The notes beneath the pieces were generated by a model. It had not been told where the DNA came from and ran no database searches. It was given only the letters and a program-made list of their open reading frames with translations. Below, piece after piece: positions 290 through 8,033 of a DNA stretch of 64,000 nucleotides. A program made the translations under genes and the position numbers. Every line of letters begins with the position of its first letter. Position 1 is the first letter of the stretch. The stretch comes from a virus. Its lineage: Duplodnaviria > Heunggongvirae > Uroviricota > Caudoviricetes > Ackermannviridae. The stretch is from IMG/VR virus record IMGVR_UViG_2974693523_000001, positions 38,803-102,802 of that record; one strand, written 5' to 3'.

Positions 290-335
290 AAAAATGCCTT
301 ACACGTTGTTAACCATATAAGGCATATAGTTGGAT

Positions 336-1190
336 TTATACAGACATTGGGTATTTTAGTGGTCCGTGACTCTGATAACAAATAACATCAAAATCATCAG
401 TGTTGCATTTGAGAACATCATCCCAGTCTTTGATGCGAGGGTTAATCCATAGAATAGGTAAATCCATTGGCTCACGTTGAATTTGAATAAGCATTGTATC
501 ATATTGGTCCTCATAAATATGAGGATTTACAATGATATGAGTTGCTTCTGTAGGTTTATTACCTGTGATGCGCGCCATTAAACAAAGGAAAACAAACACC
601 TGAATCATGTTGAAATTTAATCCAAGAGGGACATCACATGAACGTTGATATGAGATCAGTGATAGATCTTTTTGAATTAAACTAAAATGATGTTGGTACA
701 TACATGGGCGTAGACAAGCCTTGTCAAAATCATCTGGTTTCCAGAAAGTGATGATTTCACCACGATCGTCAATACCCATTTTTAAATTTTCATAGACTTT
801 TGTGAATTGATTAACACCACCAAAGTCATGACCAATAACGCCATAGCATTTACCCATATCACCATCGCCGCGATAGTGTGGGTTGCTAGTCCAAGACGGA
901 CTAGATGCGTTTGCCAGCCATGTTTTAGTGCCTAATGCTACAAAGTCATAGGCATTATCATATCCCCTTAGATAACCGAGTAACTCGGCTACAGCTGACT
1001 TCCAAAAACTTTGACGTGTTGTATCCATTGGTAAGTTATTAAAATAAGCGCCATCTTCGGACATAACGGGATTGTACTCAAAAATAGCTTTTTTAAGTGT
1101 TAAGCATTTTTTACCCGTTCTTTCATTATGGATCCAAGTACCTTCTTGAACCAACTTACGACAAAGGTTTATATATTGATGATCAATCAT
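336..1190 (-). CDS. thyA: thymidylate synthase family enzyme (ThyA/Td-like; dUMP-specific by conserved Asn)
   Basis: Motifs MIDHQYINLCRKLVQEG (matches ThyA N-terminus), RTGKK, IITFWKPDD, PCMYQHHF (active-site Cys), YQRSCDVPLGLNFN. Start moved to the ATG at 1190, which has GGAGA upstream. Confidence 0.7.
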   Translation of the reverse strand: MIDHQYINLCRKLVQEGTWIHNERTGKKCLTLKKAIFEYNPVMSEDGAYFNNLPMDTTRQSFWKSAVAELLGYLRGYDNAYDFVALGTKTWLANASSPSWTSNPHYRGDGDMGKCYGVIGHDFGGVNQFTKVYENLKMGIDDRGEIITFWKPDDFDKACLRPCMYQHHFSLIQKDLSLISYQRSCDVPLGLNFNMIQVFVFLCLMARITGNKPTEATHIIVNPHIYEDQYDTMLIQIQREPMDLPILWINPRIKDWDDVLKCNTDDFDVICYQSHGPLKYPMSV

Positions 1191-1425
1191 GTATATTCTC
1201 CGAGGAAAATTGTGGGAGTGCATTTATGCGCTTGATACTAAATGAACCACTTTCAGCGTTCATTATAACTAAAAAATTTTCGCTATCTACATCAAGAACA
1301 AAAATAGAGGTTTTACATTGTAGAAACTTTTTATAAAGCCATTGATAAACCTGTGGTTCTGAATACATGTTTACTGAAACACTATCAGGTTTTGTTTTTA
1401 AATGTTCTATGAATTTTTCAATCAT
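1183..1425 (-). CDS. hypothetical protein
   Basis: ORF; internal ATG at 1425 preceded by GAGGAA. Track start at 1452 is TTG. Confidence 0.4.
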   Translation of the reverse strand: MIEKFIEHLKTKPDSVSVNMYSEPQVYQWLYKKFLQCKTSIFVLDVDSENFLVIMNAESGSFSIKRINALPQFSSENIHD

Positions 1426-1783
1426 TTTGTTCCTCAACATAATTAATTTCAAAAACTGTAATAGCTTTAATTATAATCTCATACCATGCAGAACGAAAAC
1501 CTGATTCATGGTATGAGAATAAATATTTATCACCATTGATGTTCACAACACCGTTTTGTAATTCACCATTATTAGAGGCAATGGTCATAAAATCAAAAGC
1601 TTTTCTATGGGTTTCATAATTGATAACAAACCAATCTTTCTTTTGTTCGATAGCGCTTTCTAATAAACTGTTAAATTCTAGGATCTGCTCCTCAGATACA
1701 TCTGTATCTCCATTGAGAATTTCTTCACAACATATCATACCAAAAGTACTGATTCTTTTTGCTACAAATTCCATTTTAGTCAC
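1418..1783 (-). CDS. hypothetical protein (121 aa)
   Basis: ORF packed tightly in a same-strand operon. Confidence 0.5.
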   Translation of the reverse strand: MTKMEFVAKRISTFGMICCEEILNGDTDVSEEQILEFNSLLESAIEQKKDWFVINYETHRKAFDFMTIASNNGELQNGVVNINGDKYLFSYHESGFRSAWYEIIIKAITVFEINYVEEQND

Positions 1784-2312
1784 CTAATTTTATTTGTCTG
1801 TCTTGAGGTCTTGAAAAAACATATGCTTCGCTTAGATTGCAATAGGTAAGAAGCCAATTCACATTACCTGTTGAAACAATCATAGGCGCATTTGAATTAC
1901 CAACACCAAGGTAAATGACATCACAAATGTTATAGAAACGGCTGTTTAGTGATATTTTTACAATGTGATCAAAATCAACAATACACTCAAGAAGAAACTC
2001 ATTAAGTTCCTTTTTCATTTTTTCCATAGGTTGATTATCTTTTAGATCATCATATGGTGTAACTACCTCACGGGGCTCGATACACATATTCATTATTTCA
2101 AAAGAATACATGAGTCGCTTCACAAGGAATTGCCCTTTACCACACTTGATGATAAATTTTGAACCAGAACCCTTATTTCTTTCTTCTATAAAATATCTAT
2201 CCAAAATAGGATAGGCAATATTAGACGTATCAATAACCGTTTTATCCCATAGACGTAAAGGTAATTGAGAACTCAATATAGATGCAAATCTGTTAAGTTT
2301 CATTTTAAACAC
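1776..2312 (-). CDS. hypothetical protein (178 aa)
   Basis: ORF in a same-strand operon; 8-nt overlap with downstream gene. Confidence 0.5.
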   Translation of the reverse strand: MFKMKLNRFASILSSQLPLRLWDKTVIDTSNIAYPILDRYFIEERNKGSGSKFIIKCGKGQFLVKRLMYSFEIMNMCIEPREVVTPYDDLKDNQPMEKMKKELNEFLLECIVDFDHIVKISLNSRFYNICDVIYLGVGNSNAPMIVSTGNVNWLLTYCNLSEAYVFSRPQDRQIKLGD

Positions 2313-2314
2313 CT

Positions 2315-2665
2315 TTAAAATATAGCTGTAATGGATGTTTCAATAAATTCTGGTGCGACCAATGTGTAACGCTCAGGGCATAGCGCATTATCAGCAGTAT
2401 AGAACGCGATATAAACAACACCATTAATAATAAAACGATGTACATAGTTGCTATGTTCTACCGCGTTTTCAATGAACCGGAATGCTTTCTCATTACCTAC
2501 GCTACAGATATCAAAAATTTCTTCTTTTTTGCGACCAACAAACATTTGTAAAAAAGCAGAACGCATTTCAAAAAATTCTTCTTTTGTTAAATCAGAATTC
2601 ATCATGACAATATTCCTATTAAAAGTTATTTTGAATACTTTAAACCAAAAATCTTCAATAAACAT
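2315..2665 (-). CDS. hypothetical protein
   Basis: ORF; track start at 2692 is GTG and lies inside a hairpin. First ATG is at 2665. Confidence 0.4.
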   Translation of the reverse strand: MFIEDFWFKVFKITFNRNIVMMNSDLTKEEFFEMRSAFLQMFVGRKKEEIFDICSVGNEKAFRFIENAVEHSNYVHRFIINGVVYIAFYTADNALCPERYTLVAPEFIETSITAIF

Positions 2666-2677
2666 CAATTTTTTAAG

Positions 2678-2706
2678 AAAAAAAAAATCCACCCCGAAGA
2701 GTGGAT
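2678..2706 (-). terminator. intrinsic terminator (hairpin ATCCAC/GTGGAT followed by U-run on minus strand)
   Basis: A10 run, 6-bp stem and loop on the plus strand equal stem plus U-run on the minus strand. Sits immediately 3' of the tRNA-like element. Confidence 0.4.
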
Positions 2707-2716
2707 TTTAATGGGT

Positions 2717-2782
2717 TGGCGAGGGCGGGAGTTGAACCCGCTGTTTAGCTGTGCGGACTAAACAAAAACCTCTATCTACGCC
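2717..2782 (-). pseudogene. degenerate tRNA-like element (intact T-arm GCGGG-TTCAACT-CCCGC and acceptor 3' strand; no canonical D/anticodon arms; possible GCA loop)
   Basis: Manual folding: the T-arm and a 7-nt acceptor 3' strand are present, but the 5' acceptor partner and D-arm are not recoverable in about 66 nt. Confidence 0.3.
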
Positions 2783-2961
2783 TTTAATTTTTTGATGGTC
2801 CAGTCAAACAATGTCCACTTTGTTAGATAGCGATATGCATCTCTATAACTTTTAAACTGTGTTGCCTTATTAATATCCAAAGTATAACAGACATCACCTG
2901 GGAAACTAACAATATATTGTCTTTCACTGTTTGCTATAACAAACATATCACACCTTTAAAA

Positions 2962-3038
2962 TGGTGGGTCTGAGGGGAATTGAACCCCTGATCCTAGAGT
3001 TATGAGCTCTCCGCTTTAGACCGCTAAGCTACAGACCC
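2962..3038 (-). tRNA. tRNA-Met (anticodon CAT; could be initiator/elongator/Ile-lysidine type)
   Basis: Manual cloverleaf: acceptor GGGTCTG/CAGACCC, D-arm GCTT-AGCGGTCTAA-AGC, anticodon stem GAGAG/CTCTA with loop CTCATAA, T-arm AGGGG-TTCAATT-CCCCT, encoded CCA. Confidence 0.85.
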
Positions 3039-3706
3039 TTATAACGTATTAACTCCTTGATAGTATCAAAAGTGTTTGTATCAAGAAGTTTGATGTGTTC
3101 GCCTCTGATGATATACAATGGTTTAGTGCAATATGCCCATTTGCATTCATCCCTTTCTGTTTTATAACCCTTAACTTCTATAAAACATTCATAAGCGGGT
3201 AAATAAAAATCAGGGAAATATAAATGAGGACTTTCTCTCCAAATATACTCTTGAGGGTGTGTTTCACCTTCCCACTCTATGTTATTAGCATCAAGCCATT
3301 TGGCTACTAATAATTCCCAGTTACCCTTTAGTTTGTGGCCTCTGTATTCGATACAATTTCTTCCACAAACATTATTGGATGAATAAGAACTAGGGTTTTC
3401 AGAAACAGCCCTTTTCATCCTTTCTGAATGAGCCTTCCTTCTTTGATCAGTCCATTCAATGTTAGAACTCGCAACACTTAATTTTTCTCTAGTATCTTGA
3501 GAAACGATACACTCACGGCCTTCCTGTTTAGCTTTAGTGAATTGATTCTGACCATTACCTCTCCTTTCACTCATAGCTTTCAACCAAGCTTCTGATTTAG
3601 GTTTTTTAGGTTTGATGTTTATGTTATTCTTGCATGCGGACTCATGCACTGCTAAACCTCCAGTGTTCCCACATGTTTTCCCACAATATTTACATTGTAG
3701 CTGCAT
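3029..3706 (-). CDS. freestanding homing-endonuclease-like protein: N-terminal Cys/His zinc finger plus C-terminal PD-(D/E)xK nuclease core
   Basis: CKYCGKTC...HESAC zinc finger; C-terminal PDFYLPAYECFIEVKG fits D...ExK. Start moved to the ATG at 3706, where the preceding GAGG is an SD. The track's N-terminal extension (3707-3826) is built from tRNA remnants. Sits between tRNA genes. Confidence 0.5.
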   Translation of the reverse strand: MQLQCKYCGKTCGNTGGLAVHESACKNNINIKPKKPKSEAWLKAMSERRGNGQNQFTKAKQEGRECIVSQDTREKLSVASSNIEWTDQRRKAHSERMKRAVSENPSSYSSNNVCGRNCIEYRGHKLKGNWELLVAKWLDANNIEWEGETHPQEYIWRESPHLYFPDFYLPAYECFIEVKGYKTERDECKWAYCTKPLYIIRGEHIKLLDTNTFDTIKELIRYKGL

Positions 3707-3711
3707 AACAA

Positions 3712-3736
3712 CCTCTAACCACTGAGCTAAGGGGCC
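3712..3736 (-). pseudogene. tRNA 5'-half remnant (GGCCCCT-TA-GCTC-AGTGGTTAGAGG)
   Basis: Perfect tRNA acceptor-plus-D-arm signature with no matching 3' half nearby. Its GAGG now serves as the SD of the endonuclease gene. Confidence 0.45.
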
Positions 3737-3806
3737 AAAATTGGGAGCGGGATGGTTGATAGCCATCAGTATGTAATCCATCATAGGCAAGGCTTTGATG
3801 CCTTGG

Positions 3807-3842
3807 GTCTGTGTGCCTAGAATCACATACCTCTCCGCTTTA
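3807..3842 (-). pseudogene. decayed tRNA-Met-like remnant
   Basis: Shares the segments gggtctg, cctaga and cctctccgcttta with the intact tRNA-Met at 2962-3038, with internal deletions. Confidence 0.35.
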
Positions 3843-4115
3843 TTCTTCTGGTTCTTTCAAACTTTGTTCTTTTGAAAGATTGTTCATAATAAAATCGAAT
3901 AAAATTTCTGTTTTGTCTACGGACCAACATTCATGCCCATTTTTCATAACAGCAACAGAAACAGGTCTTCCTTTATCATCCCAACAATTAACTTCTGTAT
4001 AACAGGCACTTTGATCAGCGTCAATATCACCGTGGACTTGCTTGAACATCCACAATAGCTTCTGTTCATCGTTCATTTCAGAAATTAACATTTTATTCAC
4101 CAAATGGTTCTTCAT
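3840..4115 (-). CDS. hypothetical protein (91 aa)
   Basis: ORF between tRNA genes. Confidence 0.4.
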   Translation of the reverse strand: MKNHLVNKMLISEMNDEQKLLWMFKQVHGDIDADQSACYTEVNCWDDKGRPVSVAVMKNGHECWSVDKTEILFDFIMNNLSKEQSLKEPEE

Positions 4116-4323
4116 AAAAACGAAGCGGGTGTTTAGAGGCCATTAGGTTCACACAAAAAGACAACTCCTTTACATCTTCATGGATAATAGCGTCAGGGTT
4201 GTTTTTGTATTCCTTGCGTTGCTCTTGTGCAACCTGTAACACAAGTTTCACAAAGCCGTAAAGTCCTTTAGCTCGGATACCTTTTCTGATGTTCTCGACC
4301 AGTTGTTGATCTAAATTTTCCAT
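4093..4323 (-). CDS. hypothetical protein (76 aa)
   Basis: Track ORF starts inside tRNA-Arg. Internal ATG at 4323 is preceded by AGAGGTG. Confidence 0.4.
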   Translation of the reverse strand: MENLDQQLVENIRKGIRAKGLYGFVKLVLQVAQEQRKEYKNNPDAIIHEDVKELSFCVNLMASKHPLRFYEEPFGE

Positions 4324-4340
4324 AAACACCTCTAAACAAA

Positions 4341-4417
4341 TGGCGCGCTGTACAGGATTCGAACCTGTGACCACAAGCTTAGAAGGCTCGTGCTCTATCC
4401 TACTGAGCTAACAGCGC
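4341..4417 (-). tRNA. tRNA-Arg (anticodon TCT)
   Basis: Manual cloverleaf: acceptor GCGCTGT/ACAGCGC, D-arm GCTC-AGTAGGATA-GAGC, anticodon stem CGAGC/GCTTG with loop CTTCTAA, T-arm ACAGG-TTCGAAT-CCTGT, discriminator G, CCA. Confidence 0.85.
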
Positions 4418-4652
4418 ATAAATTAATGAGGGTTACGCCGTCCCTCTGCTACCGCTTGCCGGCCATTACGCCTCATCAAAGTAGCCGATTTATTTTATTG
4501 AAATCCTCTTAAGTCGAATATAATAGAGCATACCTCTAAATTCTTTATAGCCATGTGCCACTCAAAAGGATTTCAATAAAGGGGCTGTTTCAAACCCCTT
4601 GGAATGGTGTGGATTAACAATCGCTGACCTGTAATTGTACAGGCACCACACG

Positions 4653-5282
4653 CTAGTTCACAGCGTCACCAATATGACTGAGTTGGTGAACGTCCCCATT
4701 GTCTAGGGCATCTCTCCACCTAAGCAAGGCTTCTTTAACTTCTTTATTACTCTGAGTCATAGCTAAACGGTAAGCATATTCAGATTTTCTTCTGCGCCAA
4801 GCATAATGAGCTTCTAACTCTCTTTCAAAAAGACCTAGATATCCACGTTTTTTATTGAATGGGTCATTACATTGCGCTTTGAACTTACCCGCTACTTTAC
4901 ACCAGCAAACACCTATGAGATATTCTCCAGAACTAGCTTTGTGATCATTTATGAACGCATTAATTTGCCTTGTCACAAACATACATGTATCAGGTGAATA
5001 TAATTTGTTCCCTACTAGCTTTAAATCTTTGTCTAGTACATAATCAAACCCATCTGTTGGGTAATTAGATTCATACCATTCAGCAAAATTTTGGTAGTGT
5101 AACCAATCACCACAAACTTCACATTCTTTATACGTTGGTTGCCTAGAATGATATTTCACGTCGTAGCATCTCTGGAGCATACTTCTCCATTTTATGTACG
5201 AATCTGTTAGAACGCCATCTTGACTCGCTTTATGACGCCCCTTTTCATAGACACCAACACCAAACAATAATTTGTTTCTCAT
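4653..5282 (-). CDS. freestanding homing-endonuclease-like protein with HNH-like region and AP2-type DNA-binding domain
   Basis: YLIGVCWCKVAGKFKAQCN..RGYLGLFERELEAHYAW fits the AP2 pattern. N-terminal GVYEKGRH...YIKWRSMLQRCY and LDKDLKLVGNKLYSPDTCMFVTRQINAF resemble phage HNH/AP2 homing endonucleases. Sits inside the tRNA cluster. Confidence 0.5.
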   Translation of the reverse strand: MRNKLLFGVGVYEKGRHKASQDGVLTDSYIKWRSMLQRCYDVKYHSRQPTYKECEVCGDWLHYQNFAEWYESNYPTDGFDYVLDKDLKLVGNKLYSPDTCMFVTRQINAFINDHKASSGEYLIGVCWCKVAGKFKAQCNDPFNKKRGYLGLFERELEAHYAWRRRKSEYAYRLAMTQSNKEVKEALLRWRDALDNGDVHQLSHIGDAVN

Positions 5283-5840
5283 AACAAATGTACTCGACGA
5301 AAACTTCTCAAAATATACTTTCTCAAATACATTTTGAGAAGTGGGTTGGGAAAATACCCACGTCCCGTCTGTCTCACGACAGTCTCAATCTAGCGGGTCT
5401 TAGGCTCCCGTTAGAAGGGTTCTGTACGGCTTGAGGGATGTAAGCCACCAGAACTAGCGAAACACAACATTTGATCGCGAAATGGCATGTTTATAGCGGT
5501 TGACTTCCCGCGACTGGCAAAACCCCAGTCCATAGAGCGTGGTATGCGTTGCCTCACTCTTTTAAGCGGTCTTAATCTTAGATGAGGAATCCGTTAGCAA
5601 CAATGTTAATCGGATTGATTAAGACCGCTTAAAAAAGACCCCTACACTAAAGGGGTGAACATAAATTTATGTCCTTTTAAAACGCACTTTATCACATCAA
5701 AACAAACTTGAAAAATTTATTTTGATGTGACCCCTATACAGGGACCACAACTGACCTCCGAATCCCAACAAAACGAGGGTCACTGGTTTGCCATGCCATG
5801 TCTTACCAGCTTTAAACACTCTTGACAAAAAGCGCTTAAA
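5283..5840. other. 558-bp structured non-coding region (multiple perfect hairpins/palindromes); candidate stable small RNA(s)
   Basis: 14-bp perfect stem aagcggtcttaatc...gattaagaccgctt (5563-5632) with an internal aatccg/cggatt stem. 14-nt palindrome acataaatttatgt. 11-bp inverted repeat tcacatcaaaa/ttttgatgtga. No credible ORF. Confidence 0.4.
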
Positions 5841-5842
5841 GA

Positions 5843-5919
5843 TGGCGTCCACAATGGGATTTGAACCCATGACCTTTCCCTTAGGAGGGGAATGCTCTAT
5901 CCAACTGAGCTACGCGGAC
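5843..5919 (-). tRNA. tRNA-Arg (anticodon CCT)
   Basis: Manual cloverleaf: acceptor GTCCGCG/TGTGGAC (two G-U pairs), D-arm GCTC-AGTTGGATA-GAGC, anticodon stem TTCCC/GGGAA with loop CTCCTAA, T-arm ATGGG-TTCAAAT-CCCAT, discriminator G, CCA. Confidence 0.75.
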
Positions 5920-5921
5920 GG

Positions 5922-6011
5922 TGGTGGGTGCAGATGGATTCGAACCATCCCGTTTCAAACCTCATTCCTCACAAGGATATGCGCGACCTCTCGCTATTAC
6001 AGTTTACACCC
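5922..6011 (-). ncRNA. 90-nt tRNA-like RNA (intact acceptor GGGTGTA/TGCACCC, T-arm GATGG-TTCGAAT-CCATC, CCA) lacking a canonical anticodon/D arm
   Basis: Manual folding: the ends are perfectly tRNA-like, but the interior 55 nt folds as a GCGA-GAGG-TCGC hairpin and gives no 5-bp/7-nt anticodon arm. Either a type-II tRNA that needs tRNAscan-SE, or a tRNA-derived stable RNA. Confidence 0.35.
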
Positions 6012-6019
6012 AAATTGAA

Positions 6020-6106
6020 CACCCCGTGCAGGATTCGAACCTGCGTCACTTTCGGTATCTCGAGCACGAGTCTCCGACTAATCTTAACCGCTAGAATGAA
6101 CGGGGT
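6020..6106 (-). ncRNA. 87-nt tRNA-like RNA (acceptor ACCCCGT/ACGGGGT, T-arm GCAGG-TTCGAAT-CCTGC, no encoded CCA) with non-canonical interior
   Basis: Manual folding: acceptor and T-arm are perfect, the D-arm is weak, and the interior forms an extended interrupted hairpin TCGG-AGA-CTCG-TGCT-CGAG-ATA-CCGA instead of an anticodon arm. Confidence 0.3.
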
Positions 6107-6322
6107 GGTTGGCGGTGAGTAATTTAGCTAACTCACCTTATCAATTTATATTATTAAAGAGCTTTTGGGTGTTTTAAGTAAGGGCGGATTTTAACCCGCC
6201 CTGTACTTTGGACGCCCCGTTAAGTAACTAAGCTGCTGTTTTTGAACTGCTTATTCCTTAACTTGAGACCATTAAAACATGCTTAATTTATGAAAGCAAC
6301 ACATTTTTAATTTTTTTTTTTG

Positions 6323-6469
6323 TTACTCGTCTTCGTCTTCCAAACCACCACTCAATTCAATGTCAGGTGATTCACAAAATGGGCAAACTTCTGGCTTTAT
6401 GTGTGAATTACAAGAAATTGAACACTCTTCGTCACAGTTTTGACAAATTATACCGTAGACAACATCCAT
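6323..6469 (-). CDS. small Cys-rich (zinc-ribbon-like) protein, 48 aa, acidic C-terminus
   Basis: Own translation: MDVVYGIICQNCDEECSISCNSHIKPEVCPFCESPDIELSGGLEDEDE. GAGGA SD lies 8 nt upstream. Absent from the ORF track (under 60 aa). Confidence 0.4.
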   Translation of the reverse strand: MDVVYGIICQNCDEECSISCNSHIKPEVCPFCESPDIELSGGLEDEDE

Positions 6470-6514
6470 CTTAATATCCTCATGATTTGTTTGATGTTAT
6501 GCGTTTAATTAGTA

Positions 6515-7051
6515 TCATTTTCCTTCTAGAAAATCAGCTTCTTTGTTTCTTCTTGATTTATAGCGATCACCAAAATTTCTAAGATTTTTTACCACTGCTA
6601 CCCAATCATGTGATGTGACCTGCTTCCAGAAATTAGGCGTTTTCTTTGATAAATCACCATACTGAAATGATACAGAAGCAATAACGGTTGCCTGTCGCTT
6701 GGTAAGCTGTTCGAAAGGTATTTTACTAACTGCATTAAATGACTTAACTAATCTGTCTATGCTCTGTTTATGCGCTACAGCGTTGATCTCTCTAGCTTGC
6801 TCCTTTGTAACTGTCAAAGGTTTTAATTTTAGAGCGTTTAATGCTGATTCTTTTTTCAAACCAACATATGGTTTTAATTTATTGGCTATTTCAGGTTTAA
6901 AAAGTTTATCCAATTCAGCGCTAGTCCTTGCACCTATGTCAAAACCTGATGCTATGGTAACACCACTTTGACTGTTCTTTGGATCCGGAACATAACCCTT
7001 TAATTCAAAACCTTCTAATTTTTCTATAAATTCAAAATCTATGTTTTTCAT
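6515..7051 (-). CDS. lysozyme-family protein (T4-lysozyme/pesticin-like fold), endolysin candidate
   Basis: N-terminal LEGFELKGYVPDPKNSQSGVTIASGFDIG fits the EG..L..Y.D...G.TIG.G pattern of GH24/pesticin-like muramidases. Position next to the tRNA cluster mirrors T4 gene e. Confidence 0.5.
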   Translation of the reverse strand: MKNIDFEFIEKLEGFELKGYVPDPKNSQSGVTIASGFDIGARTSAELDKLFKPEIANKLKPYVGLKKESALNALKLKPLTVTKEQAREINAVAHKQSIDRLVKSFNAVSKIPFEQLTKRQATVIASVSFQYGDLSKKTPNFWKQVTSHDWVAVVKNLRNFGDRYKSRRNKEADFLEGK

Positions 7052-7085
7052 TTTTCATACCCCATTGTTGAATGGGATATTTAGA

Positions 7086-7120
7086 GAAAAAAAAAAAGAC
7101 CACTTATGTGGTCTTTTTTA
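7086..7120. terminator. bidirectional intrinsic terminator (A-run, AGACCAC-TTAT-GTGGTCT, T-run)
   Basis: Perfect 7-bp stem flanked by A11 and T6; lies between convergent ends of minus-strand genes. Confidence 0.6.
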
Positions 7121-7131
7121 GGATATGAAAA

Positions 7132-7614
7132 CTATTTCAAGGCAATAATTTTTGGTTCATCACCTTTGTTTAATGCCTGACCATCTAAGCCAACAAGTTG
7201 TGGTGTTGTCACTTGCTTAATGTCTTTTTCGTTCATACCTTCTTGCACCATTTCTTCAATAAGTGCTTTGGCTTCATTACGGCGTAAACGATCTAGAGCT
7301 TCTAATGATTCGTTATTACCAACGGTTACACTACCTTCAATAGGATCAACAACGTGACAATGAGTAAGATATACGTTGTCAAAGCCTAAAAGAACCATCT
7401 GCAATTCATGCAATACCATGATTGGATGACCTGTAATGTTTGCGGAGAAGTATCCTTCAACAACACCATTATTTTCTTTTACAACCAAAAAGGATGATGA
7501 AAAATAGACATAGTAGTCACCATTTTTCATCTCAATTAAAGGTTCTTCAGAACCTTTAAAAGTTTCTTTGTATTTTTCTGCTACTTGTTGACAGAAATTC
7601 TTTCTGATATCCAT
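7132..7614 (-). CDS. hypothetical protein (160 aa)
   Basis: ORF followed by the terminator at 7086-7120. Confidence 0.5.
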   Translation of the reverse strand: MDIRKNFCQQVAEKYKETFKGSEEPLIEMKNGDYYVYFSSSFLVVKENNGVVEGYFSANITGHPIMVLHELQMVLLGFDNVYLTHCHVVDPIEGSVTVGNNESLEALDRLRRNEAKALIEEMVQEGMNEKDIKQVTTPQLVGLDGQALNKGDEPKIIALK

Positions 7615-7619
7615 TATTG

Positions 7620-8033
7620 TTACCTTTTATCAAGTGTTATAGCGGTCTTATCCATAACATAAACAAGACCTACATAGTTTAGTGCCTCACATTCTGCACA
7701 CAATTTATTTCCAAAAACAATAACTTCTCTTGAATTTTTATTTTCATAAGTTTCAAGGAAATGTTGTAATGACTTGCATTTATTGACATATAGATCGGAA
7801 ACTTCTGAATCAATAAGATATACTTCTTTTGGGTAAGCAGGCAAACACTCGTATTCTAAGCCCTCAACAACAAAAACGGCCTCATCTTTAACTTTTTTCT
7901 TAACAAATTCTCGGTAGATTTTTGTCTGATTAAATAAATCAAAATCAGGATCCGCCATAAACAAGACGCTAACCTTCATGTTATATCCTCTCAAAAACTT
8001 TTTGAATTTTGTGACTAAGTTTATCATGGTCAC
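7620..8033 (-). CDS. hypothetical protein (137 aa)
   Basis: ORF; 5-nt spacing to downstream gene. Confidence 0.5.
   Translation of the reverse strand: MTMINLVTKFKKFLRGYNMKVSVLFMADPDFDLFNQTKIYREFVKKKVKDEAVFVVEGLEYECLPAYPKEVYLIDSEVSDLYVNKCKSLQHFLETYENKNSREVIVFGNKLCAECEALNYVGLVYVMDKTAITLDKR

Follow-up and report, generated by a model that had tools for sequence, protein, structure and literature searches.

In the tRNA region of bacteriophage T4, genes follow one another in the order tRNA-Ile, segB, tRNA-Arg, rnaD and rnaC (PMC2330249). In T4-type phages, control of free-standing endonuclease genes involves terminators, hairpins and processing by RNase E, and in the case of seg43(25) the hairpin lies just upstream of the ribosome-binding site and does not cover it (PMC2988022). 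The present study concerns a 558-bp interval that separates tRNA-Arg(CCT) from an open reading frame (ORF) for an 'HNH endonuclease' in a 64,000-nucleotide stretch of viral DNA, hereafter the window. The window derives from Vibrio phage vB_VchM_Kuja (NC_048827), with a 100% match over a 2.2-kb query (positions 4300-6500). Kuja belongs to the Ackermannviridae (Kujavirus) and infects V. cholerae O1 El Tor. The minus strand carries every gene from about position 300 to 8030, and the order tRNA-Arg(CCT), interval, HNH ORF, tRNA-Arg(TCT) corresponds to the T4 type of location.

Our analysis favors, with a probability of roughly 0.55, an interpretation of the interval as a non-coding RNA of the minus strand that is transcribed with its neighbours and acts as a termination, processing and insulation zone, within a tRNA and small-RNA cluster in which a homing endonuclease gene has settled. 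The transcript of the two tRNA-like elements and tRNA-Arg(CCT) would mostly stop at a predicted terminator (5656-5632), releasing a trailer of approximately 205 nt as an RNA of the 3' external transcribed spacer (3'-ETS) type. Transcripts that read through would be cut within a long hairpin by RNase III or a similar enzyme. Further downstream, a GC-rich core and a hairpin preceding the HNH gene would hold transcription and translation of the endonuclease low and would shield the tRNA genes from it. Such an insulating role would parallel that of the terminators and hairpins of mobE, segB and seg43(25) in T4-type phages. The core may, in addition, be a stable RNA in its own right, like the T4 species 1 and 2 RNAs.

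The carriers of the interval are Kuja and two Logan contigs, L009 and L011; the protein clusters hold these three alone. L011, located through a lysozyme search (99% match; ERR11172810), is 98.3% identical to Kuja over 5.6 kb. L009, located through an HNH protein search (97% match), is truly diverged: its flanking proteins are 53-67% identical to those of Kuja and its upstream intergenic DNA cannot be aligned. Logan runs ERR11172810, ERR11172841 and ERR11172859 indicate where further Kujavirus-like phages might be obtained. Window positions 6057-4417 align to L009 at 89%.

On the minus strand, the interval has a minimum free energy of -211.6 kcal/mol, compared with -146.7 +/- 6.9 kcal/mol for dinucleotide shuffles, which served as the folding null (z = -9.35); the plus strand yields z = -7.80. 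The inverted repeats ranked 1, 3 and 4 among the 20 strongest of the 64-kb window fall within these 558 bp, and the folding signal resides in long AT-rich hairpins. Wherever a long stem departs from Watson-Crick pairing, the minus-strand RNA has a G·U pair and the plus-strand RNA an A·C mismatch; hairpins 5806-5845, 5690-5732, 5657-5674 and 5301-5344 together contain nine G·U pairs in the minus sense and none in the plus sense. Because of this, the hairpins are more stable in the minus sense (minus versus plus, in kcal/mol: 5806-5845, -16.7 versus -6.5; 5690-5732, -20.3 versus -11.2; 5301-5344, -20.6 versus -11.9; and, beyond the HNH gene, 4490-4585, -30.8 versus -19.6). The L009 interval behaves likewise (-228 kcal/mol in the sense orientation versus -186 kcal/mol; z = -8.26 versus -5.69), and the advantage of the sense strand amounts to 32-42 kcal/mol across the two phages. 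The G·U strand asymmetry therefore points to selection on RNA in the sense of the tRNA and HNH genes, and not on DNA cruciforms.

Identity to L009 is mosaic along the locus (Table 1), and every hairpin of the interval re-forms in L009 at the matching place, even at 44-65% identity. Fifteen local helices were written as one structure of 149 pairs and counted on the alignment of the three sequences, in which 97.8% of the cells are paired. Two-sided changes that keep pairing affect 11 pairs, compared with 0-2 when the partners are slid by 1-3 columns (0/500 shuffles). Where one side alone has changed, the outcome is a G·U pair or else a G-C pair restored from G·U or A·C, and in no case a new A·C. 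Within the GC-rich core, five of the eight substitutions affect stem positions, and each of these keeps or restores the pair: U-A becomes C-G in helix f and U·G becomes C-G in helix d, while in helix e A·C becomes G-C and U-A becomes U·G. Helix g, just outside 5367-5556, has a further U-A to C-G change. Since the 15 helices are kept in L009, 11 changes are compensatory and the one-sided changes produce G·U in the minus sense, we infer that the interval is a maintained RNA structure and not junk. In its general form this upholds the original prediction, drawn from the letters of the window, that the region is too structured for a simple spacer and could encode small RNAs: the helices persist through compensatory changes in a diverged relative and are specific to the RNA strand. 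The same prediction had taken the lack of an Rfam match and of conservation as signs of neutral junk; there is no Rfam family for the interval, but the conservation of its structure is clear.

Several observations weigh against the favored reading as a termination, processing and insulation zone. The three sequences amount to effectively two lineages and were also the source of the structure. Paired changes that look compensatory can arise by template switching in quasi-palindromes, although this would not yield the G·U asymmetry. The GC-rich part (5343-5556), taken alone, does not fold beyond the shuffles (z = -1.0 and -1.4). No conserved promoter was found within the interval by a sigma-70 scan or by searches for TTTACT-N17-TATAAT and TATAAATA; the last of these motifs is not enriched within the window, and the only sigma-70-like site in Kuja, TTCTCA-17-TATATT, lies inside the pre-HNH hairpin and loses its -10 element in L009. 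Furthermore, the pre-HNH hairpin sequesters no ribosome-binding site, unlike the hairpins of the classic I-TevI/mobE mechanism, and a pure leader or insulator role leaves the 96% identity of the 215-nt core, loops included, unexplained. Lastly, the divergence of the core (4.2%) and of the long hairpin (6.2%) stands beside a synonymous divergence of about 3% in the HNH gene, so that both could have travelled with that gene in a recent co-conversion. Patchy exchange does operate here, as the differences between Kuja and L011 are clustered. Even so, the patterns of variation suggest that constraint is to be favored over co-conversion, by roughly two to one, because the 64 nt nearest the HNH gene are among the most diverged, because the variable patches coincide with the tips in four of four long hairpins while the stem bases are conserved, and because the tRNA bodies likewise place near-identity beside variable arms.

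Table 1. Features of the Kuja locus in transcription order (window coordinates), with nucleotide identity to L009
Feature	Position	Strand	Identity to L009	Remarks
Pesticin-type lysozyme gene	7051-6515	-		First in transcription order
48-aa zinc-ribbon-like ORF	6469-6323	-		After the lysozyme gene
tRNA-like elements (two, unannotated)	6105-6016 and 6012-5920	-	89% (element 2)	Directly upstream of tRNA-Arg(CCT)
tRNA-Arg(CCT), CCA encoded	5843-5919	-	91%	ARAGORN; Rfam tRNA, 66.7 bits
558-bp interval	5283-5842	-		Starts right after tRNA-Arg(CCT); record annotation empty
Hairpin 1, 14 bp	5809-5841	-	86%	1-2 nt after tRNA CCA; part of 3' trailer; 3 G·U
Conserved stem-loop	5747-5787	-	92% (5733-5805: 82%, 31 nt invariant)	Helix 2 of the structure
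Short hairpin UCCCU-GUAU-AGGGG	5729-5747	-	61%	L009 forms a 7-8 bp hairpin at that site
Hairpin 2, 19 bp, AT-rich	5692-5730	-	60%	tcacatcaaaa repeat; 3 G·U
Small hairpin (14-nt palindrome)	5657-5674	-	44% (5657-5689)	A to G at 5672 in L011
Intrinsic terminator (predicted)	5632-5656	-	65%	Stem 5638-5656 and U6 tract 5632-5637; terminator scan
Long hairpin, 81 nt	5557-5637	-	94%	21-bp lower stem, 10-nt internal loop, upper stem; candidate RNase III-type processing site
GC-rich core, ~215 nt, eight short helices	5343-5556	-	95.8% (5367-5556)	~50% GC versus ~37% around (GC profile)
Core helix a	5534-5560	-		Invariant
Core helix b	5512-5530	-		Invariant
Core helix b2	5496-5511	-		Invariant
Core helix c	5457-5478	-		Invariant
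Core helix d	5419-5454	-		Backed by compensatory/repairing changes
Core helix e	5389-5415	-		Backed by compensatory/repairing changes
Core helix f	5369-5382	-		Backed by compensatory/repairing changes
Core helix g	5341-5361	-	67%	Backed by compensatory/repairing changes
Pre-HNH hairpin, 18 bp	5303-5342	-	70%	Ends 20 nt before HNH start, then UUUU; candidate barrier or weak terminator
Linker to HNH ATG, 20 nt	5283-5302	-	100%	Also 100% identical in L011
209-aa 'HNH endonuclease' ORF	5282-4653	-	98.1%	Directly downstream of the interval
Structured spacer, 235 nt	4652-4418	-		After the HNH ORF
tRNA-Arg(TCT)	4417-4341	-		After the 235-nt spacer

The trailer (5842-5632) comprises four hairpins and has the terminator at its end. 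Hairpin 1 is retained in L009, where one U-A pair has become C-G and one mismatch is repaired. In the conserved stem-loop, the 31 nt at 5753-5783 (GUGACCCUCGUUUUGUUGGGAUUCGGAGGUC) are invariant across all three sequences, and hairpin 2, despite its low identity, keeps its fold with three compensatory pairs. The sole difference between Kuja and L011 in the whole interval, A to G at 5672, converts an A-U pair to G·U. At 5656-5638, six pairs (four of them G-C) followed by CUUUUUU conform to a Rho-independent terminator. Its L009 counterpart, ACCCUUC-CUU-GAAGGGU, carries the same U6 on a stem of different sequence. These uridines also begin the 5' arm of the 81-nt hairpin (U6-AAGCGGUCUUAAUC ... 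GAUUAAGACCGCUU-AAAAGA), a perfect 21-bp stem in which the terminator U-tract pairs with a downstream A-tract; jointly, terminator and hairpin reach z = -8.9. In L009 this hairpin has one compensatory and two wobble changes. Stems of such length suffice as RNase III substrates, for which about 20 bp or more of continuous double-stranded RNA is the mark; 21 pairs are continuous in 5557-5637, and the other stems have 18-19 bp. The GC-rich core had no match in either Rfam or PHROG. In the pre-HNH hairpin the stem base is conserved relative to L009 and the tip is replaced, with two compensatory pairs, and no Shine-Dalgarno sequence occurs in this hairpin (5342-5303) or in the 20-nt linker before the HNH ATG.

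All motifs that the original prediction had named were recovered from the sequence. The 14-bp stem aagcggtcttaatc/gattaagaccgctt (5563-5576/5618-5631) encloses aatccg/cggatt, as described, and extends to 21 nt with 95% complementarity (5557-5577/5617-5637). The 14-nt palindrome acataaatttatgt occupies 5659-5672, and the 11-bp repeat tcacatcaaaa/ttttgatgtga (5692-5702/5720-5730) reaches 18-19 bp when minus-strand G·U pairs are counted. A hairpin placed at 5348-5372 does exist, with true coordinates of 5343-5366, and the structure placed at 5649-5672 is real but merges two things, the terminator hairpin (5638-5656) and the palindrome. Two long hairpins, at 5303-5342 and 5809-5841, had gone unlisted. 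The flanks were correctly given as tRNA-Arg(CCT) (5843-5919) and a 209-aa HNH ORF (4653-5282), both on the minus strand, as was the description of the region as ORF-free: the longest ORF in the interval is at most 57 aa, and the eight stop-free fragments of its six frames have no match in PHROGs. An upstream ORF at 5279-5377, overlapping the HNH start as ATGA, was rejected, being frameshifted in L009.

The spacer on the far side of the HNH gene (4418-4652) is also highly structured (z = -4.8), its elements being a conserved stem-loop, a terminator-like hairpin at about 4575-4600 (GGGGUU-UGAAAC-AGCCCC-UUUAUU) and a 20-bp hairpin at 4494-4580, the tip of which is replaced in L009, including a 17-nt insertion, so that here too the conservation is mosaic. 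An 85-nt element of this spacer (4418-4502), beside tRNA-Arg(TCT), is about 97% identical in L009, though L009 lacks that tRNA.

Comparison with phages lacking this HNH gene, as the original prediction had proposed, was possible for the Vibrio phages VPALA and SUMAE, which are syntenic (SSB, RuvC, tRNA-Met, HNH, tRNA-Arg, tRNA-Arg, baseplate), and for Aeromonas phage TSW001, where nothing more than the neighbouring tRNA-Met and tRNA-Arg pair is shared, within a large tRNA array. The distance between the two tRNA-Arg genes is about 100 bp in all three phages, none of which contains the 558 nt, this HNH ORF or the 235 nt; in VPALA and SUMAE the gap holds only a homologue of tRNA-like element 2. 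VPALA does contain a comparable module (L005, 5395-5480, minus strand), in which CCCCCC...GGGGG-CUUUUU is followed by a 17-bp hairpin that pairs those uridines with downstream adenines. This terminator with a U-tract-absorbing hairpin differs from the Kuja module (5557-5656) in sequence and in position, upstream of tRNA-Arg(CCT), and its recurrence argues for a reusable functional unit. Local alignment of the VPALA and Kuja terminators scored 31 against a null maximum of 29, the terminator alone being significant. A comparison of the trailer with VPALA by nhmmer gave E = 0.014, at most a possible remote homology, and a covariance model of the trailer (R1) had no match in VPALA, SUMAE or TSW001.

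Searches outside these phages returned little. A distant-mode blastn search of the interval against 50,697 phage records found only Kuja itself, and exact conserved k-mers in IMG/VR, JGI metagenomes and GTDB genomes yielded nothing but one chance 20-mer, without extension, in a metagenome-assembled genome of the Burkholderiaceae. When the lysozyme and the baseplate hub were used to find related loci, the result was either nothing or distant contigs devoid of tRNA genes. Rfam, at the gathering score over the whole window and at E<=1 over 2500-7000, reported only three tRNAs; at E<=10 on the interval alone there were generic look-alikes only (the RyhB terminator at 19 bits, and plant miRNA precursors on the long hairpin), and no intron, ribozyme, riboswitch, HEARO or tRNA signal was obtained from Rfam within the interval. 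Neither a T-arm motif of the GGUUCGAAUCC type nor a tRNA match occurs inside 5283-5842, such elements being found at 5920-6105 instead. The invariant 22-mer has no complement elsewhere in the window that might mark a target in trans.

The HNH ORF is assigned to PHROG_953 ('HNH endonuclease', 3.6e-72) and has no Pfam match; some of its relatives carry AP2 (PF00847). The PHROG_953 profile is matched at positions 194-390 only. As the closest homologues have 189-208 aa, the ORF is complete; it is a free-standing, AP2-related gene of homing-endonuclease-like character. That the interval might be what is left of the N-terminal half of a once longer HNH gene was rejected on the size of these homologues and on the absence of PHROG matches among the six-frame fragments. 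Between Kuja and L009 the gene has four synonymous and eight non-synonymous differences (synonymous divergence, dS, about 0.03; dN/dS about 0.6). So low a dS within so diverged a backbone marks the gene as a recent arrival that must have been exchanged between phages, in keeping with a homing endonuclease. Homologues of this family occupy several unrelated sites, namely gp46/gp45, terminase and recT. That of vB_VmeM-32 lies between gp46 and gp45 with about 180 nt to its neighbour, and those of three Logan contigs overlap their neighbours or lie 60-120 nt from them. A leader forming part of the HNH cassette was rejected, given these distances of 0-180 nt. Homologues in such tight slots lack the leader; thus the long RNA is not part of the mobile unit of the HNH family, and the gene seems to have settled in an RNA locus that was there before it. 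Read by eye, the Kuja protein has D-K (VLDKDLKLVGNKLYSPDTCMFV) where D-H would be expected in the HNH motif; it may be a nuclease that is relaxed or in decay, or chiefly a DNA binder of the AP2 type.

Among the other explanations, those that grant the RNA a function of its own deserve most attention. The segment 5303-5637, that is, the 81-nt hairpin and the eight-helix core, might tentatively be read as a previously undescribed stable phage RNA, either belonging to the tRNA and small-RNA cluster, as the T4 species 1 and 2 RNAs do, or serving and travelling with the adjacent endonuclease gene, with the 205-nt trailer as a second RNA of the 3'-ETS type. In its favor, core and long hairpin are 94-96% conserved, a tRNA-like level, between two lineages of Vibrio Ackermannviridae whose neighbouring proteins are 53-67% identical. 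We give a comparable, minor share of belief to one or two independent trans-acting RNAs, one of about 205 nt (5842-5632), a product of the tRNA-Arg(CCT) precursor that ends at the terminator, and a stable one of about 300 nt (5637-5303), for which the adjacency of the HNH gene would be incidental. The very strong retention of primary sequence in the core and in 5753-5783, loops too, and the fact that all five core stem substitutions keep or restore pairing would suit such RNAs. The pre-HNH hairpin with its UUUU could terminate the longer one, T4 has two stable RNAs right after tRNA-Arg, and a promoter-proximal RNA of VPALA ends at a similar terminator. These points are offset by the failure to find a promoter or a target, the 22-mer being without complement in the window, by the covariance model of the trailer, which matches nothing in VPALA, SUMAE or TSW001, by a distribution of three sequences, and by the chance that the core owes its conservation to recent co-transfer with the HNH gene. 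A further reading would make the interval functionless passenger DNA, dragged along by repeated HNH homing and patchy recombination, with hairpins born of template switching and a likeness to L009 that reflects recent exchange. An HNH gene 98% identical between phages with deeply diverged backbones, clustered Kuja/L011 differences, a core divergence near the synonymous divergence of the gene, and the existence of VPALA, SUMAE and TSW001, which manage without the interval, all accord with this account. We nonetheless hold it improbable, as variable patches fall on the hairpin tips in four of four cases above conserved stem bases, the terminator has been rebuilt from different bases in L009, and palindrome processes at the DNA level would not be expected to leave a transcribed strand with G·U only and no A·C. 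Co-conversion tracts should, moreover, run continuously from the HNH gene, but the 64 nt closest to that gene are among the most diverged.

Two proposals of the original prediction tie the region more directly to the endonuclease. It is most unlikely that the enzyme recognizes or lands on the DNA of the interval or of the hairpin adjoining the gene. Homing endonuclease genes usually adjoin their target, and the hairpin tip nearest the gene (5303-5342) is unusually variable between two phages that carry it. There is, however, no HNH-less allele with the interval, since the only HNH-less syntenic phages, VPALA and SUMAE, lack it; the strand-specific G·U pairing points to a function of RNA, not DNA; and the same HNH family occupies unrelated loci. 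The T4 enzyme SegB, which sets the precedent, has its target in the conserved T-psi-C region of tRNA genes (PMC2330249). The other proposal, a degraded intron-like element, here taken as a group I or II intron that once held the HNH ORF, is essentially refuted. Structured RNA does flank the ORF, 558 nt upstream and 235 nt downstream. Against this, Rfam gave no match to a group I or group II intron or to any other family when relaxed to E<=10 (the group I core, RF00028, is undetected, as is group II domain V/VI), and the sole ORF is of the HNH/AP2 type rather than a reverse transcriptase or maturase. The flanking tRNA-Arg(CCT), HNH ORF and tRNA-Arg(TCT) are all complete, so that no interrupted host gene and no exons to join are present; close homologues of the HNH protein (~200 aa) are free-standing, in tight intergenic slots without such RNA; and an intrinsic terminator inside the interval is incompatible with an intron core. 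There is also very little chance that small coding genes are hidden here, for instance a 48-codon GTG ORF at 5411-5557 (minus strand). A 60-codon frame is open, Kuja and L009 have no indels relative to each other in 5343-5637, and the stop survives as TAG in place of TAA. This frame has, however, no Shine-Dalgarno sequence, its start sits inside the 21-bp stem, L009 differs by two non-synonymous changes versus one synonymous change, no PHROG matches, gene callers called nothing there in L009 or L011, and the substitutions track helices, not codons.

The surroundings of the interval provided further observations. Neither ARAGORN nor the tRNA model of Rfam recognized the two tRNA-like elements (5920-6012 and 6016-6105). 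An acceptor stem and a canonical T arm are present in both (GAUGG-UUCGAAU-CCAUC and GCAGG-UUCGAAU-CCUGC), a normal anticodon arm in neither; element 2 terminates in ACCA. Element 2 is kept at 82% in VPALA and SUMAE and at 89% in L009, with a variable middle arm, while element 1 aligns with the position of tRNA-Arg(CCT) in VPALA and may be a decayed tRNA. In concept, both resemble the T4 species 1 RNA, with which they share the T arm. A further tRNA-like remnant (GGUUCAACUCCCGCC...CGCCA) lies at about 2683-2783 on the minus strand, downstream of tRNA-Met and followed by a strong terminator. Its Rfam matches are weak (Tymo_tRNA-like at 19.6 bits, RNAI, rnk leader), and its L009 homologue (4748-4804) comes directly after the conserved block, at the position that tRNA-Arg(TCT) has in Kuja.

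The anticodon stem of tRNA-Arg(CCT) itself exists in three versions, UUCCC/GGGAA in Kuja, CUUCC/GGAAG in L011 and UUUUC/GAAAA in L009, whose compensatory changes preserve pairing. Kuja and L011 have seven differences at this tRNA (six within the 77-nt gene and one at 5920) and only one over the roughly 860 nt of 5842-4978. The cluster could reflect patch recombination, or diversifying selection such as escape from a host nuclease that targets the anticodon stem-loop. Elsewhere in L011, positions 41-1270 encode a 409-aa TnpB/IS605 OrfB (Cas12f-like) protein beside the homologue of window 7620-8033, where Kuja has a divergent baseplate-hub gene; this looks like an IS605-family element in a lytic phage of the Ackermannviridae. 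In TSW001 (L006), an apparent unannotated ORF of about 63 codons, read by eye at about 5540-5730 on the minus strand, has a good Shine-Dalgarno sequence (AAGGAG) and a hydrophobic N-terminus (MLNVLLLVGIVVGSGSW...), and lies in a GC-rich gap of about 630 nt upstream of tRNA-Arg(CCT).

The locus offers a compact case of a lytic phage arranging termination, processing hairpins and conserved RNA around a selfish endonuclease in a tRNA cluster. If the GC-rich core is a stable RNA, it joins a small and poorly understood class that includes the T4 species 1 and 2 RNAs, and provides a testable non-coding gene for the biology of V. cholerae phages. The terminator with its U-tract-pairing hairpin, recurrent in VPALA, may serve these phages as a punctuation element for repeated use. 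In practical terms the findings carry modest weight because three sequences alone carry the region.

The closest described counterpart is the segB-rnaC/rnaD locus of T4. Kuja, too, has a free-standing homing endonuclease gene between tRNA genes and a structured non-tRNA RNA directly downstream of tRNA-Arg, all on one strand. The interval has no homology to T4 rnaC or rnaD, a generic T-arm 11-mer alone matching, in the tRNAs. The two loci differ in that the endonuclease is of the HNH/AP2 type in Kuja and of the GIY-YIG type in T4, and in that the Kuja interval has an internal terminator and lacks the T-arm and acceptor features, which are located in the 5920-6105 elements instead. Regarding endonuclease control, the hairpins of mobE, segB and I-TevI and the terminators of mobE and segF have parallels in the hairpins and terminators immediately upstream of and around the Kuja ORF and in its poor expression signals; as with seg43(25), the Kuja hairpin stands upstream of the start and covers no ribosome-binding site. 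Unlike the T4-type genes, that of Kuja has neither a sequestered ribosome-binding site nor a conserved internal late promoter, and its leader is far longer (~350 nt), with a conserved GC-rich core, whereas homologous HNH genes elsewhere lack a leader.

The near-perfect stems of 18-21 bp between units of one transcript, candidate processing sites, resemble the RNase III hairpins of the T7 early region and of the T4 tRNA precursors (RNase III/E). An internal loop is typical of the T7 sites, while the Kuja stems are perfect, and it is unusual for a stem to take up the U-tract of a terminator. In E. coli, 3'ETS-leuZ is a small RNA of about 50 nt from the 3' external transcribed spacer of a tRNA operon. 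Kuja 5842-5632 would be comparable in being the trailer of the last tRNA of its transcription unit and in ending at an intrinsic terminator, and differs in its much greater length (~205 nt). Kuja also recalls HEARO, the omega RNA of IscB, in having a conserved and structured GC-rich RNA immediately before an ORF annotated as HNH; the Kuja RNA has no Rfam match, the 209-aa protein lacks the RuvC part of IscB (RuvC and HNH, ~400-500 aa), and its homologues occur without such an RNA. While the interval as a whole has no counterpart among described RNA families, its parts are familiar ones: a tRNA trailer, an intrinsic terminator, hairpins of the processing type and an endonuclease leader.

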